From Bacillota bacterium (GTDB taxonomy: Bacteria; Bacillota_I; Bacilli_A; RF39; UBA660): a stretch of DNA of 64,000 bases. Shown here one piece after another: positions 36,942 through 46,877 of the stretch. A program made the position numbers and the translations under genes. Position 1 is the first letter of the stretch, and each line of letters begins with the position of its first letter. A model generated the notes under the pieces. That model was given only the letters and a program-made list of their open reading frames with translations. It did not search any database and was not told the DNA's origin. The stretch covers positions 55,058-119,057 of the forward strand of contig SVAK01000003.1 in NCBI GenBank assembly GCA_015059445.1. Reading direction: 5' to 3'.

Positions 36942-37283
36942 TTAATATATTTGATTTTTTGGTATATACTTTTATTTACACTTTTTTTACATCAACCTTT
37001 AATTTATTTTTATCTTATAGTCTTAATCATTATATAATTTATGCATATGATAGTTATTAATTTTTAATATAATTTTGAAAGGGTGAAATTAATAAATGTC
37101 GAAGAAACAAAAGAAAAATTAGGAGAAAAGCTACTATTTCTGATACTAGTGGGTTTAGACCAGCATATTAATATACGAGAGTCCGTTGCTTGGCAACTCT
37201 TTGAAAAAAACAATGAGTATATAAAATGATACTTTTTATTAGATAATAAATTAACAATTTTAAAATTATAGGAGATGATAGTA

Positions 37284-37916
37284 ATGTTAGGAAAAGATCA
37301 ATTAGAAATATATAAAAAACAAATAAAAAACAATCCGCAATTAGAAGAAGTTCTTTCTTTTTGTAATTTTGAATTTAGGGATAATATTGATGTAAAAGAA
37401 GACATATTAATTTGCGGTGAAGAAAGCAATTATGAAATTTATCCATTTGGTAAAGATGGTTGTGGATGTACTTATGCATTATTAAACAACCAATATGTTG
37501 GTTTTATCTCAAGTGCAGGTGGTTGTGGTATTATTGCAAACAACATAAAAGATTTTTTTAATTTTTTAGCTGTTATTAAAAACATAGAATCTTATTTTGT
37601 AAAAGGAGTTTTTGATAATTTGGAAAATTTTAATGATACGTTTAAAATGGCATCAGAAGATTTTTTGGATTCAATAACAAGATTTGGAAATTATTCATAT
37701 GATGTTTCAATTCAAGCTTTAGAAAAATTTATTATAGATAATGGTTTTGTAACTGATAATGCTATTATGTATGAAAAATTAAAATCAGCTCTTATTACTG
37801 AACCATCATTTGTGCTTCGCGCAGATCCTAGCGAATATGAACCATGGGATGATGTTTTTTATACTAATCAAAAATACATCAATGAATTAAGAGAAAAAAA
37901 AGTTAACCATGATTAG
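37284..37916 (+). CDS. Hypothetical protein, tentatively SMI1/KNR4 (SUKH)-like
   Basis: The segment FGKDGCGCTYALLNNQYVGFISSAGG resembles the G-DG-G core of SUKH immunity-type proteins. The likely start is the ATG at 37284, which follows an AGGAG RBS. Confidence 0.4.
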   Translation: MLGKDQLEIYKKQIKNNPQLEEVLSFCNFEFRDNIDVKEDILICGEESNYEIYPFGKDGCGCTYALLNNQYVGFISSAGGCGIIANNIKDFFNFLAVIKNIESYFVKGVFDNLENFNDTFKMASEDFLDSITRFGNYSYDVSIQALEKFIIDNGFVTDNAIMYEKLKSALITEPSFVLRADPSEYEPWDDVFYTNQKYINELREKKVNHD

Positions 37917-38423: not shown

Positions 38424-38635
38424 TGTTAGAAAATATATTATATTTGGTTGGCGGTTTAGTGGGAGGCTTAATTTTAGGGTTCTTTTTAGCAAGATTCTTT
38501 ATGAAAAAGTATTTAACTAAAAATCCTCCAATTAACGAAAAAATGATTGAAACCATGATGAGTAGTATGGGAAGAAAACCAAGTCAAAAACAAGTTAAAC
38601 AAGTTATGAATCAAATGAATAGACTCAATAAATAA
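38423..38635 (+). CDS. yneF: UPF0154/YneF-family small membrane protein
   Basis: 70 aa. It has the TM helix LYLVGGLVGGLILGFFLARFF, then ...NPPINEKMI...MGRKPSQKQ. Confidence 0.7.
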   Translation: MLENILYLVGGLVGGLILGFFLARFFMKKYLTKNPPINEKMIETMMSSMGRKPSQKQVKQVMNQMNRLNK

Positions 38636-38648
38636 TTTGATAATAATA

Positions 38649-38677
38649 TTGTCAATTGAAAAAATATTTGGTATATT
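38649..38677 (+). promoter_or_regulatory. Promoter of the T-box leader
   Basis: TTGTCA (38649-38654), a 17-nt spacer, then TGgTATATT as an extended -10 (38669-38677). Confidence 0.5.
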
Positions 38678-38683
38678 AATGGC

Positions 38684-38885
38684 ATAAATCGATGAAGAAA
38701 GATTAGTAGCTATAGAAGTTTTTTTAGAGAGTTAGTGGATGGTGAAAACTAATAAAAAAGAAATAGTGAATCTACTTTCTGAGAGTATTTAATAAATAAC
38801 GGGTAGTTTACGTTATAAACTAATAAGTAATATATTGGATGGTACCGCAGAATTGCTCCTTGAGTTTTTTGCGGTTTTTTATTTT
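38684..38885 (+). promoter_or_regulatory. T-box riboswitch leader with a serine (UCU) specifier
   Basis: It has the GA motif ATCGATGAAG, the AGAGAG plus GTGGATGGTGAAAAC Stem-I distal elements, and GAA-UCU-A as a specifier-loop candidate (38768-38774). The T-box sequence AATATATTGGATGGTACCGCAG lies at 38829-38850. The terminator is ACCGCAG...TTGCGGT followed by a T-run. Confidence 0.65.
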
Positions 38886-38896
38886 TGGAGGTTCAT

Positions 38897-39397
38897 ATGT
38901 TAAAGAATTATATGGGAGAAGAAAAATATTTAAAAATAAAAAATAGTAGTAATGTTTTTTATAAAGCTTTGGAAATTGTCTCCATATTATTTGAAAATGA
39001 CAAAGATAAAGGCGGATGGCCATATATTTTACATTTAATTTCGGTTTATAAAAAAGTTTCGGAAGAAAATGAAAAAATAATTGCGCTTCTTCACGATGTA
39101 ATTGAAGATAAAAATGTGAGTGAACAAGATTTACTAGATATTGGCTTTTCTAAAGAAATAGTTGAATCTGTCAAATTGATTAGCAAATCGCAAGAAATTA
39201 GTTATGAAGAATATATTCATAATTTAATTATTAATGGTTCTAAACACATTTTGCGAGTGAAAATGGCTGATTTAGAAAATAATATGGATATAAGTAGAAT
39301 TAGTAATGCAGCGGAAAAAGATTATGAACGAATAGAGAAAAAATATAAACCTGCTTATTTAAGAATTAAAAACAGACTAGAAGAAATGGAGAGATAA
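38897..39397 (+). CDS. HD-domain protein, SpoT/Mesh1-like (p)ppGpp hydrolase family
   Basis: It has HLISV...ALLHDVIED, which is an HD His/Asp metal motif. The ATG at 38897 follows GGAGG, and the gene is co-directional and contiguous with serS. Confidence 0.65.
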   Translation: MLKNYMGEEKYLKIKNSSNVFYKALEIVSILFENDKDKGGWPYILHLISVYKKVSEENEKIIALLHDVIEDKNVSEQDLLDIGFSKEIVESVKLISKSQEISYEEYIHNLIINGSKHILRVKMADLENNMDISRISNAAEKDYERIEKKYKPAYLRIKNRLEEMER

Positions 39398-39399
39398 AA

Positions 39400-40692
39400 A
39401 TGATAGATATTAAATTAATAAGAGAAAATAGAGAATTAGTAAAAGAAAATATTAAGAAAAAATTTCAGGATAATAAGTTACCTTTAGTTGACGAAGTATA
39501 TGAACTTGATATTAGATATAGAGAATGTAAGAGTAAAGCAGATAATTTAAGAAGTGAAAAAAATAATTTAAGTGCATCAATTGGTGAATTAATGCGAGAT
39601 GGTAAAAAAGAAGAAGCGATGGCAATAAAAGAAAAAATTGCTTTAATTGCAAAAGAAATACCTGCACTTGAGGAAAAAGAAATAGAATTAGAAACAAAAA
39701 TTAAAGAAAAAATGATGATAATTCCTAATATAATTGCAGCTGATGTACCAGTTGGTAAAGATGATTCTGAAAATGTTGAAGAACAGGTTTTTGGAGAATG
39801 TAAAGTTCCTACATTTGAAATTCCATATCATTCTGATATTATGGCAAAATTTAATGGGTTAGATAAAGAAGCAGCGGGAAGAGTAAGTGGTAATGGTTTT
39901 TACTATTTAATGGGTGATATCGCTCGTCTTCATTCTGCTGTATTAGCATATGCAAGAGATTTTATGATAAACAAAGGATTTACATATTGTATTCCCCCTT
40001 TTATGATTAGATCTGATGCTGTAAATGGTGTAATGTCTTTTGAAGAAAAAGAAAATATGATGTATAAAATAGAAGGAGAAGATTTATATTTAATCGGTAC
40101 TTCTGAACATTCAATGATTGCAAAATTTAAAGATCAAATGTTAAAAGAAAGTGAGTTACCAATAACTATGACTTCATATTCTCCATGTTTTAGAAAAGAA
40201 GTTGGAGCACATGGAATTGAAGAAAGAGGAGTTTATAGAATACATCAATTTGAAAAACAAGAAATGATTGTAGTCTGTAGACCAGAAGAAAGTGATGCCT
40301 GGTATGAAAAAATGTGGAATTATTCAGTTGAATTATTTAGAAGTTTAGATATACCGGTTAGGAAATTAGTTTGTTGTTCTGGAGATTTAGCAGATTTAAA
40401 ATATAGATCATGTGATATAGAGGCTTGGAGTCCAAGACAACAAAAGTTTTTTGAAGTATGTTCTTGTTCTAATTTAACAGATGCTCAAGCAAGGAGACTA
40501 GCGATTAGATATAAAAAAGAAAATGGCGAAAAGGAATTTGCTCATACGCTAAATAATACAGTTATAGCACCGCCAAGAATGTTAATTGCTTTTTTAGAAA
40601 ACAATTTAAATGAAGATGGTAGTGTAAATATTCCAGTTTCTTTAAGACCATATATGGGTGGAATGGATAGAATAGTTATTAATAAAGATTAA
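39400..40692 (+). CDS. serS: Seryl-tRNA synthetase
   Basis: It has an N-terminal coiled coil and a class II core (motif 2 FRKEVGAHGIEERGVYRIHQFEKQE, motif 3 region). 430 aa. Confidence 0.92.
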   Translation: MIDIKLIRENRELVKENIKKKFQDNKLPLVDEVYELDIRYRECKSKADNLRSEKNNLSASIGELMRDGKKEEAMAIKEKIALIAKEIPALEEKEIELETKIKEKMMIIPNIIAADVPVGKDDSENVEEQVFGECKVPTFEIPYHSDIMAKFNGLDKEAAGRVSGNGFYYLMGDIARLHSAVLAYARDFMINKGFTYCIPPFMIRSDAVNGVMSFEEKENMMYKIEGEDLYLIGTSEHSMIAKFKDQMLKESELPITMTSYSPCFRKEVGAHGIEERGVYRIHQFEKQEMIVVCRPEESDAWYEKMWNYSVELFRSLDIPVRKLVCCSGDLADLKYRSCDIEAWSPRQQKFFEVCSCSNLTDAQARRLAIRYKKENGEKEFAHTLNNTVIAPPRMLIAFLENNLNEDGSVNIPVSLRPYMGGMDRIVINKD

Positions 40693-40696
40693 ATTA

Positions 40697-40724
40697 AGGA
40701 GACTTATTAAAAAGTCTCTTTTAT
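40697..40724 (+). terminator. Terminator after serS
   Basis: Stem GAGACTT/AAGTCTC with loop ATTAAA, followed by a T-run. Confidence 0.7.
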
Positions 40725-40904
40725 TTATATGATGGTAACTTGATAAAGAATAATAGTACTATTATAAGAAATTGAGACATTCTCTTTTCACAATAATTTA
40801 AACAGATGCCAGGAAAATATTTAATTTTATAAATAAAAAATGTCGAAAAATATCATAAAAATAGAAGTTTTGACAACGTTTGTCGAATGTATTGAAATGC
40901 ATTT

Positions 40905-44362: not shown

Positions 44363-44863
44363 ATGAAAAAAATTAAAAAAATTTGGGTAGAAAATAAAGT
44401 TTTATTGGTATTGGCCATCATTTTGGTAATTTGTCTACTTATATTTGCGGGTGTAGCAATAACCTATTTTTATGGTTCTAGTGATAATGTATATGGTAAT
44501 AGATTGGACGTTACTAACAATGTCCCTTTAAATGACAAGTTACTGGAAGATATTAAAGAAGAACTTGGAGCTAATGAAAATGTTAAAAGTACTAGTGTTA
44601 GTCTCAAAGGTAAAATAGTATATGTTAATATTAAATATGTGGATGAAACTAAAATGGAAGATGCTAAAAGTATAGCTGAAAAAGTTGTTGAACTATTTAA
44701 TGACGATGAATTAGAAATCTATGACATTCAATTCACAATTAGTACATTATCAACAAGTGAAGTAAATGGGTATACTTTAATGGGAGCAAGAAATGCTAGC
44801 GGTAGTGGTATTGTGATTTGGAATAATTATAATATCGAAGAAGGAAGTAGTGAGTCTGAATAG
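44363..44863 (+). CDS. Hypothetical membrane-anchored protein
   Basis: 166 aa with an N-terminal TM helix. It sits upstream of, and overlaps, the GGDEF-like gene. Confidence 0.45.
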   Translation: MKKIKKIWVENKVLLVLAIILVICLLIFAGVAITYFYGSSDNVYGNRLDVTNNVPLNDKLLEDIKEELGANENVKSTSVSLKGKIVYVNIKYVDETKMEDAKSIAEKVVELFNDDELEIYDIQFTISTLSTSEVNGYTLMGARNASGSGIVIWNNYNIEEGSSESE

Positions 44864-46877
44864 TATGAAAAAGAAAAGATGGATTATATCTTTAATGCTA
44901 ATTGTTTTAGCTTTAGTATTTGTTGGTATAATAACATTTAATATTTTAAGTAATGATAATAAACTGACCAGTGAAGAGAGAACTTGGATAAATGAAAATA
45001 TAAATAATGTTCAAAACATCTATGTTGTAAAAGATGAAAATGCTTTTAGCAGAGATGGTAGCGGTGTATTTTATTCTTTTTTAAATGATTTTAGCGAAGA
45101 ATATGGTATTGAACTTAATATTATTAGTTTTGATAATACTAATACACCGACAGACAATAATTTGAATTATACGAAAAATATTTCTGATAACTCAAAAGTT
45201 TTTTATACTGATCATTATGTCCTAGTTAGTAAAAATCAAGAAATTTTAAATACTAATAAAGATCTAGAAAATAAAACTATTGGAGTTCTTAATAGTGAAC
45301 TAGAGTATATTAAAAGCTATTTAAAAGGAATAAATATAAATTTTAACGGATATGAAACTGAAAAAGAATTATTTGAAGCGGTTAATTCTACAATTAATTA
45401 TATAATATTACCTAGAATTAAATACATAGATCAAATTCTTTCCAATAATTTAGAAATTGTCTATCATTTGAGTGATATAAATAGTTACTATACTTTAAAT
45501 AGTACAGGTGATAGATTTAGCAGCATTTTAAATAAATATTTTACAAAGTGGGCTGATAATATTGATACTTCTTTAAAAAAGGAAGAATTTAAACTATTTA
45601 CTCAATCTCTTACTATAAGTGATAGCGAAATTGATAAATTATTAAGTATTGATTATCGTTATGGCTTTGTTAATAATTCGCCCTATGAAGTTATTATGAG
45701 TGGTAATTATGGAGGAATTATTGCAGAATATTTACAAGAATTTAGTGAATTTTCAGGAGTATATTTTGATATAACCAAATATAAAAATGCTAACAAATTA
45801 ATGAATGCGCTTAATAATGGAAAAGTAGATTTATATTTTGCTTTCAATGATAATATGGAAACAATTTATAAAGAAACAAGTAATGGTATCAATAGTAGTT
45901 TATCAATTCTTACCAGAAGTGAAAGTGATAAAATGATTAATTCTATTTATGGATTGCTGGGAGAAACTGTCTATGTTGAAAATAATAGTAATTTAATGGC
46001 TTATTTGAAAAGTATTGGTAATATAGATATAAAAACATACGAAACTAGCAAAGAATTATTTAAATTAAACAAAGAAAATGAAATCATTGTTATGGATACT
46101 TATATTTATGAGTATTATAGTGACAGTAAATTAAATAATTATGTTAGTAAATATGATACTTACATTAATAATAAATATACTTTTAAAATAAATAGTGATT
46201 ATAATACGTTATATACGTTATTAAATAAATATATTAGTTATTTAGATAATTCTACAATGATTAATCAGGGGATTAATAGTCATATGGAAACTATTAAAAG
46301 TGGTAATGTTTTAAATAGTATTGCGAAATACTTTATAATAAGTATTAGTGCAATATTAATAATTGGTTTAATAGTTTATAAAAATTCGAAAAAGATAAGA
46401 ATAGCTAGAAGAATAAAAAATACTGATAAAATAAGATTTATTGACGAATTAACTTGTTTAAAAAATAGAGCTTATTTAAGTGATTTTATTAAAACTTGGA
46501 GTAATAATACTGTTTATCCCCAAACTATTATTGTAATGGATTTAAATAGATTACAAGAAATAAATGATAAACATGGAGTATTAGAAGGTGATAAACAAAT
46601 TCAAGCTGCTGCTAATGCTTTAATTAAAACACAATTAGATAATAGTGATTTAATGCGTAGTGATGGCAATGAATTTGTAATCTATACAGTTGGATATAGT
46701 CAAAAACAAATTATTAATTATATACATAAATTGAACAAAGAACTCAAGAAAATGCCATATAATTATGGTGCCGAATTTGGTTATAGTATCATTGAAAATA
46801 ATTTAAAGACTATAGAAGATGCTTTAAATGAAGCGGTAGAAGATATGAAAAATAAAAAAGCGAGTGTAAAAGAGTGA
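44850..46877 (+). CDS. Membrane sensor with a degenerate GGDEF domain (SDGNEF)
   Basis: It has an N-terminal TM helix, a large extracytoplasmic region and a second TM helix. The C-terminal GGDEF fold begins DELTCLKNRAYL, but the active-site motif reads RSDGNEF in place of RxGGDEF, and there is no RxxD I-site. Confidence 0.7.
   Translation: MSLNSMKKKRWIISLMLIVLALVFVGIITFNILSNDNKLTSEERTWINENINNVQNIYVVKDENAFSRDGSGVFYSFLNDFSEEYGIELNIISFDNTNTPTDNNLNYTKNISDNSKVFYTDHYVLVSKNQEILNTNKDLENKTIGVLNSELEYIKSYLKGININFNGYETEKELFEAVNSTINYIILPRIKYIDQILSNNLEIVYHLSDINSYYTLNSTGDRFSSILNKYFTKWADNIDTSLKKEEFKLFTQSLTISDSEIDKLLSIDYRYGFVNNSPYEVIMSGNYGGIIAEYLQEFSEFSGVYFDITKYKNANKLMNALNNGKVDLYFAFNDNMETIYKETSNGINSSLSILTRSESDKMINSIYGLLGETVYVENNSNLMAYLKSIGNIDIKTYETSKELFKLNKENEIIVMDTYIYEYYSDSKLNNYVSKYDTYINNKYTFKINSDYNTLYTLLNKYISYLDNSTMINQGINSHMETIKSGNVLNSIAKYFIISISAILIIGLIVYKNSKKIRIARRIKNTDKIRFIDELTCLKNRAYLSDFIKTWSNNTVYPQTIIVMDLNRLQEINDKHGVLEGDKQIQAAANALIKTQLDNSDLMRSDGNEFVIYTVGYSQKQIINYIHKLNKELKKMPYNYGAEFGYSIIENNLKTIEDALNEAVEDMKNKKASVKE

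Follow-up and report, generated by a model that had tools for sequence, protein, structure and literature searches.

A compact tRNA(Ser)-type T-box leader heads an operon of a predicted Aph1-like alarmone hydrolase and seryl-tRNA synthetase

We analysed a 64,000-nucleotide (nt) stretch of AT-rich DNA (26% G+C; the window), in which a serine-specific T-box leader precedes the gene of a 166-amino-acid (aa) HD-domain protein and, directly behind it, serS, the gene of seryl-tRNA synthetase (SerRS). The explanation that we regard as probable for the arrangement as a whole is that the T-box drives a coupled operon of an Aph1-like hydrolase, predicted to act on (p)ppApp, and serS. The initial annotation of this DNA had read the locus as a promoter and a Ser T-box leader ahead of a SpoT-like HD hydrolase and serS; every element that it listed was present where it had been placed or within 1–2 nt of there, and the first downstream gene is, as it had noted, not serS but a stand-alone HD protein of the RelA/SpoT hydrolase superfamily. 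The nature of the hydrolase was the part that changed. The features of the operon are:

38649–38677, forward strand: sigma-70-type promoter; −35 TTGTCA, 17-nt spacer, extended −10 TGgTATATT (10/12 matches, TG present).
38683–38886, forward strand: Ser-specific T-box leader with Stem I, reduced Stem II/IIA-B, no Stem III, antiterminator and terminator.
38771–38773, forward strand: specifier codon UCU (Ser) in the specifier loop GAA-UCU-A (38768–38774), placed by the Rfam alignment and matching the downstream serS.
38837–38859, forward strand: antiterminator; helix A1 GGA/UCC, 7-nt bulge UGGUACC (38840–38846), helix A2 GCA/UGC.
38844–38886, forward strand: intrinsic terminator from ViennaRNA folds; hairpin ACCGCAGAA...UUUUGCGGU (38844–38875), then U6-A-U5.
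38887–38891, forward strand: Shine-Dalgarno sequence GGAGG of the HD gene, 5 nt ahead of its ATG, read from the sequence.
38897–39397 (ATG to TAA), forward strand: Aph1-like HD hydrolase gene, 166 aa, predicted (p)ppApp 3′-pyrophosphohydrolase from sequence, fold and signature residues.
Within the last HD codons, forward strand: Shine-Dalgarno sequence GGAGAG of serS, from the junction geometry.
39400–40692, forward strand: serS, seryl-tRNA synthetase, 430 aa (TIGR00414, 410 bits; Pfam Seryl_tRNA_N and tRNA-synt_2b).
40696–40731 (hairpin 40696–40721), forward strand: strong intrinsic terminator at the operon end, 10-base-pair (bp) stem and T-rich tail.

The initial annotation had proposed an Rfam hit and a fold as checks of the T-box. 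The first gave a match to the T-box family RF00230 over the full length of the model (38683–38863, model positions 1–219; 77.7 bits, E=2e-17, in a permissive local search). The gathering score of this family, 93 bits, is an operational cut-off and not a structural criterion; because the leader falls under it, a scan of the whole window at the gathering threshold missed the T-box and reported only a tRNA. The leader contains a GA/K-turn (GAUGA...CUGAGA), an AGAGA bulge (38726–38730), a GGUGAAA distal loop and the T-box core GGA-UGGUACC-GCA (38837–38849). Its folds by ViennaRNA made the terminator, at about −15 kcal/mol, the most stable local structure, as against −2.2 kcal/mol for the antiterminator alone. 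Both structures draw on the ACC of the bulge and on the 5′ strand of A2, and are thus mutually exclusive. (A simple terminator scanner did not report the leader terminator because its loop exceeds 8 nt.) The minimum free energy of the whole leader, however, was not better than that of shuffled sequences (z=−0.77), and the structure is therefore supported by covariation, not by thermodynamic stability alone. No tRNA-Ser gene was found in the window, where the sole tRNA is Arg-CCG.

We scanned one genome per species for relatives of the HD protein and obtained 24 loci (L004–L027; HD identity 36–61%), all from metagenome-assembled genomes labelled uncultured Bacilli, Erysipelotrichaceae or 'Clostridium sp. 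CAG:594'. The genus CAG-594 is placed within the order RF39 by GTDB (PMC8035907). Twenty of the relatives' leaders were aligned with that of the window (21 in all), which aligns with them end to end, and 19 of the 20 were scanned with Rfam; 12 of these 19 reach the RF00230 gathering score, with 98–113 bits. An nhmmer profile built from the relatives' leaders scores the window leader at 93 bits, as its one match in the window, and profile matches lie upstream of the operon in 22/22 loci with enough upstream DNA. The specifier is UCU in 19 of the aligned leaders and UCA in the remaining two (L011 and L012), both of them serine codons. Promoters of the same type (−35 TTGAC(A/T), extended −10 TGnTAnAAT) stand ahead of the relatives' leaders at the distance seen in the window. 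Taken alone, the site at 38649–38677, which the initial annotation had also marked, is at the level of chance, as 18 promoter-like matches were found in the window against 17.4 expected.

Folding of the alignment by RNAalifold without guidance recovered three helices of Stem I together with both helices of the antiterminator, which flank the 7-nt UGGNACC bulge. Compensatory changes were seen in 18/23 pairs of Stem I and the antiterminator (14/15 within Stem I), with A1 and A2 both among the helices so supported. Across the 21 leaders 97.5% of the cells are paired, compared with 76% after shuffling (0/500 shuffles reach the observed value) and 39–53% when the partners are slid; the corresponding covariation scores are 0.66, 0.23 and about 0.1. 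The structure of the leader is well beyond chance, and the window leader is a genuine Ser T-box, as the initial annotation had proposed, if a compact and diverged one.

We considered whether the leader might be a degenerate, non-functional remnant of a T-box that acts as a constitutive attenuator. The sub-threshold Rfam score, the lack of Stem III, the short Stem II, the very short antiterminator and the unremarkable stability of the whole fold are what such a remnant could look like. We nevertheless find this idea barely credible: all functional motifs are intact and conserved with compensatory changes over the 21 leaders, a strong terminator that does not switch would be deleterious ahead of an essential gene of single-copy type such as serS, and the leader is retained at about 90% identity in a relative, L037, described below.

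The terminators of the relatives' leaders proved to be of two designs. RNAalifold, applied to the 3′ parts of the relatives' leaders, lost the lower terminator stem through alignment gaps, and per-sequence folds were used instead. In 16–17 of the 20 leaders (L005, L007–L015, L018–L023 and L025) the sole hairpin beside the U-tract encloses the antiterminator, for example at L009:3931–3990 and L020:3929–3990. Such a hairpin has a lower stem of 7–11 bp, followed by A1, the unpaired UGGNACC bulge and A2; the 5′ strand of the lower stem is the conserved AAUUAAGACUA linker, the 3′ strand is ..UAGUCUU abutting the U-tract, and compensatory changes occur at four positions of this stem. Keeping the UGGN unpaired in these hairpins costs 0 kcal/mol, but about 1–2 kcal/mol in five of them (L007, L010, L015, L021 and L023). 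Since the enclosing hairpin holds A1, bulge and A2, terminator and antiterminator are not rivals for the same bases, unlike in a textbook T-box. One idea for switching in the enclosed design is that a tRNA bound to Stem I and to the bulge keeps the short linker stretched. The terminators of the window, L017, L026 and L027 pair with the T-box bulge instead. So does that of a second T-box on the L015 contig (L015:284–481), which lies upstream of an open reading frame (ORF) starting MIEKWKLALREF and has a terminator of the form AAGGAUGGUACC / GGUACUGUCCUU. A further riboswitch, of the lysine class (RF00168, 116.6 bits), is found immediately 3′ of serS at L020:5888–6063.

By the geometry of their junction, the HD gene and serS form a translationally coupled two-gene operon. 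The gap between the HD stop and the serS start is 2 nt, where the initial annotation had counted 3, and the tight coupling that it described stands. No terminator was found in a scan of the HD–serS interval, and internal promoter-like matches were not above chance. In composition the HD gene equals its surroundings and is in this respect native, and the relatives of the protein all begin with MLK.Y at the corresponding ATG.

The same coupling recurs in the lineage. We found serS directly downstream of the HD gene in 24/24 loci (SerRS identity 66–83%), at a spacing of −29 to +2 nt and often with an ATGA or TAATG overlap; the HD gene was associated with serS and with no other synthetase throughout. 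A Ser T-box lies upstream of the pair in 22/22 informative loci. In none of the 24 loci does any of the window's flanking genes (mutL, mscL, UPF0154, miaB and an ABC transporter gene) stand within 4 kb of the module. Another seven relatives of the HD protein, which are more distant (at most 39% identity), have no serS nearby.

Further genes enter some of these operons. In seven loci a DUF1653 gene (about 80 aa) lies directly ahead of the HD gene, after the T-box (L004:3334–3990, L015:3319–3991, L019:2222–3356, L024:61–717, L006:3751–3990, L018:3750–3986 and L022:3736–3990), and in four of the seven it is itself preceded by a GNAT (Acetyltransf_3) gene. L025 carries a decayed DUF1653 remnant. 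A 242-aa database protein (P0047) is a fusion of DUF1653 and HD, which suggests that DUF1653 works with the HD hydrolase. A reading of these genes as a defence system was dropped after PADLOC gave no matches for HD, DUF1653 or GNAT.

We then asked to which family the HD protein belongs. The initial annotation had seen in its HLISV and ALLHDVIED motifs a hydrolase of the (p)ppGpp type, and this assignment did not hold. The corresponding family models gave weak partial matches: Pfam HD_4 scored 17.6 bits against a cut-off of 27.2 and covered profile positions 1–83 of 156, and NCBIfam TIGR00691 (spoT_relA) matched the N-terminal part at 41 bits. Both were set aside in favour of Aph1. A sequence search of the Protein Data Bank (PDB) returned as its best match, by a wide margin, 7SMG, '(p)ppApp hydrolase' (E=7e-24, residues 15–158), with SpoT, Mesh1, RelH and Rel at E values of 1e-5 to 1e-1. 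An AlphaFold2 model built from 24 homologues (mean predicted local distance difference test score, pLDDT, 93.5) likewise had 7SMG as its best Foldseek match (target-normalised template modelling (TM) score 0.90, root-mean-square deviation 2.1 Å, 38% identity), followed by Mesh1, PaSAH and RelH, which are small alarmone hydrolases (SAHs) of (p)ppGpp, at TM scores of about 0.6. When the C-terminal 67 aa (residues 100–166) were searched alone, the sole match in the PDB as a whole was 7SMG (E=3.6e-5), and no (p)ppGpp hydrolase was retrieved. The protein also matches a phage 'metal-dependent phosphohydrolase' family.

The structure 7SMG is that of Aph1 from Bacteroides caccae, the founder of a family whose enzymes are monofunctional hydrolases of (p)ppApp (Ahmad et al. 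2023, PMC10083569). In that work the Aph family was split from the (p)ppGpp hydrolases by a search with the C-terminal 53 residues of Aph1 (Y90–E143), and was given the signature D24, R96, D116, R119, K133 and Y134, of which R96 is the sole residue placed away from the active site; the double mutant D24R/R119A of Aph1 gained ppGpp hydrolysis, and all 12 of the purified Aph homologues hydrolysed ppApp (PMC10083569). We counted conservation over 121 family sequences. The catalytic residues H46, H66-D67, E70-D71 and N129 of the window protein are kept in 120 or 121 of them. The equivalents of D24 (window D37), D116 (D131) and R119 (R134) are kept in 121/121, that of Y134 (Y150) in 119/121, and that of K133 (K148) is K or R in 118/121. 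The sixth position, R96, is N109 in the window protein and is not kept in the family (N in 86/121, R in 9/121). Five of the six signature residues are thus retained, including both equivalents of the D24/R119 pair that was shown to exclude ppGpp in Aph1, and the guanine-recognising region of TtRel around R43/R44 is replaced by D37-K38-G39, the counterpart of D24-K25-A26 in Aph1. As judged from the invariance of catalytic and specificity residues in the 121 sequences, the enzyme is under purifying selection. By sequence and predicted fold the HD protein is not SpoT/Mesh1-like, and its closest characterised relative is Aph1; it is probably a divergent member of the Aph family. Because the R96 equivalent is not kept, we call it 'Aph1-like' and do not regard its membership as proven. 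The predicted activity is hydrolysis of (p)ppApp with rejection of (p)ppGpp.

It is unlikely, in our estimation, that the protein is instead an SAH of the SpoT/Mesh1 type that degrades (p)ppGpp or pGpp, in which case the T-box would couple serine starvation to turnover of the stringent alarmone. Membership of the RelA/SpoT hydrolase HD superfamily (from the TIGR00691 and HD_4 matches) and the conserved catalytic H...HD...ED...N would agree with such an enzyme, as would the modest ppGpp activity of two of the 12 assayed Aph homologues (PMC10083569). However, the HD_4 match is sub-threshold, Aph1 is far closer in sequence, in fold and when the C-terminal region is compared by itself, and Asp37 stands in place of Rel's guanine-stacking Arg while Arg134 is present, the very pair that makes Aph1 reject ppGpp. 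Moreover, two relatives of the same lineage have a Rel-type RelA/SpoT homologue (RSH) with a hydrolase domain of its own: a 476-aa protein (HD_4, RelA_SpoT and TGS domains) is encoded 1.4 kb 3′ of serS at L035:5706–7136 and L036:5703–7133, in genomes with neither the HD gene nor a T-box at serS. The lineage therefore encodes a (p)ppGpp synthetase/hydrolase.

Several observations weigh against the explanation that we prefer, that of a T-box operon in which an Aph1-like hydrolase is tied to serine charging. On the side of the leader, these are its score below the Rfam gathering level and its reduced form, with Stem III deleted, Stem II shortened and an antiterminator of merely 3+3 bp; on that of the enzyme, the R96 position and the two dual-activity homologues, which make dual specificity conceivable (PMC10083569). 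A search of the 64-kb window for a (p)ppApp/(p)ppGpp synthetase (RSH or small alarmone synthetase), covering 20 ORFs and using tblastn with a relative's Rel, found none. The module, moreover, is not universal. To test for this we sampled by SerRS rather than by HD, and the sampling led us to reject universality in the lineage. In L037, whose SerRS is 94% identical to that of the window and which shares the gene order mutL-mscL-UPF0154 ... miaB, the leader is about 90% identical (L037:2730–3003 being compared with 38633–39402 of the window), has the same terminator and leads directly into serS without an HD gene. Three further relatives (SerRS 83–85% identical), among them L035 and L036, have neither the HD gene nor the T-box. 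Finally, the pairwise identities of HD and SerRS are only weakly correlated (Mantel r=0.27, reached by 2/5000 permutations); this is too weak for strict HD–serS co-inheritance, which we do not claim. The HD protein also diverges much faster than SerRS (51–61% versus 66–83% identity). The HD gene can be dispensed with, as close relatives show, and has a history that does not simply follow that of serS. The initial annotation had asked whether relatives keep the HD gene inside the serS T-box operon: all 24 genomes sampled by HD do so with respect to serS, and all 22 informative ones with respect to the T-box, but relatives found by SerRS can lack the gene.

These observations bear on the alternative that the HD gene is a passenger, which by history sits between leader and serS and is co-expressed without a functional tie to serine charging or any adaptive meaning. 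We consider this possible, if on balance doubtful. In the nearest relative the T-box leads straight to serS, and the 20 or so nt ahead of that gene look like the 3′ end of HD, down to its AGATAA stop; this is suggestive of a deletion of HD that retained the ribosome-binding site of serS, and hence of a simple loss that was tolerated. In addition, DUF1653 and GNAT genes come and go in the same slot, HD evolves faster than SerRS and only loosely in step with it, and about 8% of T-boxes precede genes of unknown or unrelated function (PMC2494555). A passenger would not, however, be expected to hold a single position in 24/24 genomes that carry it while every flanking gene differs, with translational coupling maintained throughout, nor to keep catalytic and specificity residues invariant in 121 sequences, as an enzyme under selection does.

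The exclusive association with serS (24/24 loci) could also mean that the HD enzyme acts on some other nucleotide linked to SerRS itself, and not to starvation signalling, such as 3′-pyrophosphorylated compounds or dinucleoside polyphosphates that arise as by-products when aminoacyl-adenylates undergo side reactions. Aminoacyl-tRNA synthetases, SerRS included, can make compounds of the Ap4A type, which would agree with the idea. We hold it to be very unlikely: nothing in the sequence speaks for it, the active-site signature is that of enzymes shown to hydrolyse ppApp, and close relatives have a serS that functions in the absence of the HD gene.

Returning to the T-box operon with an Aph1-like hydrolase, we propose that the following would take place. 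The promoter at 38649–38677 would drive a class-I (transcription-attenuating) T-box leader, which would read tRNA(Ser) via its UCU specifier. With charged tRNA(Ser), the strong terminator at 38844–38886 would form and transcription would halt ahead of the genes. With uncharged tRNA(Ser), the 3′ end of the tRNA would pair with the UGGU of the bulge and stabilise the weak antiterminator, so that RNA polymerase could read through into the HD gene and serS; hydrolase and SerRS would then rise together as serine charging falls. Such tRNA-dependent read-through would follow from the established T-box mechanism, in which the variable base of the bulge (N of UGGN) pairs with base 73 of the tRNA (N73). 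The HD enzyme, in turn, would remove the 3′-pyrophosphate from (p)ppApp and discriminate against (p)ppGpp. Both this substrate and an adaptive reason for the coupling are what we infer, and two benefits can be speculated upon. The hydrolase may clear (p)ppApp formed during the starvation response; alternatively, (p)ppApp-synthetase toxins may drain ATP, charging would fall, and the detoxifying enzyme would be induced. Given the D37/R134 pattern of Aph and Aph1 as the closest relative, the predicted link is therefore one between tRNA(Ser) charging and turnover of (p)ppApp, not of ppGpp. The initial annotation had placed alarmone turnover under the control of uncharged tRNA(Ser): the wiring of T-box, HD gene and serS stands, with (p)ppApp as the predicted alarmone and with a coupling that, as L037 shows, is not obligatory. 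A tentative extension, which we rate as rather unlikely, is that in this lineage of uncultured, RF39-type gut Bacilli (p)ppApp is physiological and tied to tRNA charging, with uncharged tRNA(Ser) inducing a dedicated hydrolase via the T-box.

T-boxes control synthetases, amino-acid biosynthesis and transporters, and we know of no regulation or physiological role of Aph-type hydrolases outside toxin immunity. A full-text literature search returned no paper on both T-box riboswitches and ppApp, none on both ppApp and seryl-tRNA synthetase, and no link of small alarmone hydrolases with T-boxes or serS. Both parts of the operon are of known kinds; their wiring appears to be new. The Aph-type (p)ppApp hydrolases were first described in 2023, in a paper according to which (p)ppApp has no known part in nutrient stress and the triggers of (p)ppApp signalling are unknown, the 'environmental trigger' being missing; it lists 'translation' among the gene neighbourhoods of Aph, and its main text contains no serS, tRNA or T-box (PMC10083569). 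A recurrent Aph-like enzyme under control of tRNA(Ser) charging would be a concrete regulatory input for (p)ppApp turnover. If true, it would be a defined starvation input, known in no organism, and would supply the missing 'environmental trigger'. The sister genomes with the same leader, with the HD gene (the window) and without it (L037), offer a natural comparison pair. This significance is tempered by close relatives that do without the HD gene and by a substrate that is only predicted; the gene may be a co-expressed passenger.

Two other ORFs of the window may be mentioned. A 213-aa ORF between mutL and mscL (37275–37916) has no Pfam or NCBIfam match and is absent from the otherwise syntenic L037. 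A second ORF of 166 aa (44363–44863), also without a Pfam or NCBIfam match, overlaps with its end the start of a 675-aa GGDEF-domain protein (44850–46877); the tblastn searches did not return it among the HD relatives.

Compared with known systems, the HD protein resembles Aph1 in its compact single domain, in its catalytic HD residues and in the D24/R119 pair, with 38% identity over 143 residues and a TM score of 0.90. It differs from it in having about 15 additional residues at its N-terminus, which add one helix, and in the R96 position. Aph1 is a prophage-encoded immunity enzyme beside a MuF toxin that is a (p)ppApp synthetase, while the HD gene is chromosomal, lies in a T-box housekeeping operon and encodes a predicted activity. 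With the (p)ppGpp SAHs (Mesh1, PaSAH and RelH of C. glutamicum) and the Rel/SpoT hydrolase domain it shares the HD superfamily fold and the HD...ED...N motif, and the SAHs are also small and stand-alone; unlike them, it has the Aph pattern at the guanine-recognition residues and a sub-threshold HD_4 match, and it matches them at E values of 1e-5 or worse and TM scores of about 0.6.

The leader is like the class-I T-boxes of Firmicutes aminoacyl-tRNA synthetase genes (RF00230; for example those of Bacillus serS and tyrS) in its Stem I with K-turn, specifier loop (codon and 3′ purine) and platform of AG bulge and distal loop, in the UGGN bulge within a two-helix antiterminator, in the competing intrinsic terminator and in a specifier that matches the regulated synthetase. 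Its compactness sets it apart from them (Stem III is absent, Stem II reduced, and the antiterminator has 3+3 bp), as does its score under the Rfam cut-off, and the 5′ strand of its terminator is formed by A2 together with the bulge's 3′ half, where class-I T-boxes use the 3′ strand of the antiterminator. The operon, too, is unlike those of class-I synthetase T-boxes, as its first regulated gene is not amino-acid-related. In this it is similar to the T-box operons whose first gene is 'hypothetical' or does not encode a synthetase (Wels et al. 2008, PMC2494555), in which a small gene of non-obvious function stands ahead of or instead of a synthetase; it differs from these in that the additional gene can be recognised as that of a hydrolase of the alarmone type and holds one position across the whole lineage.

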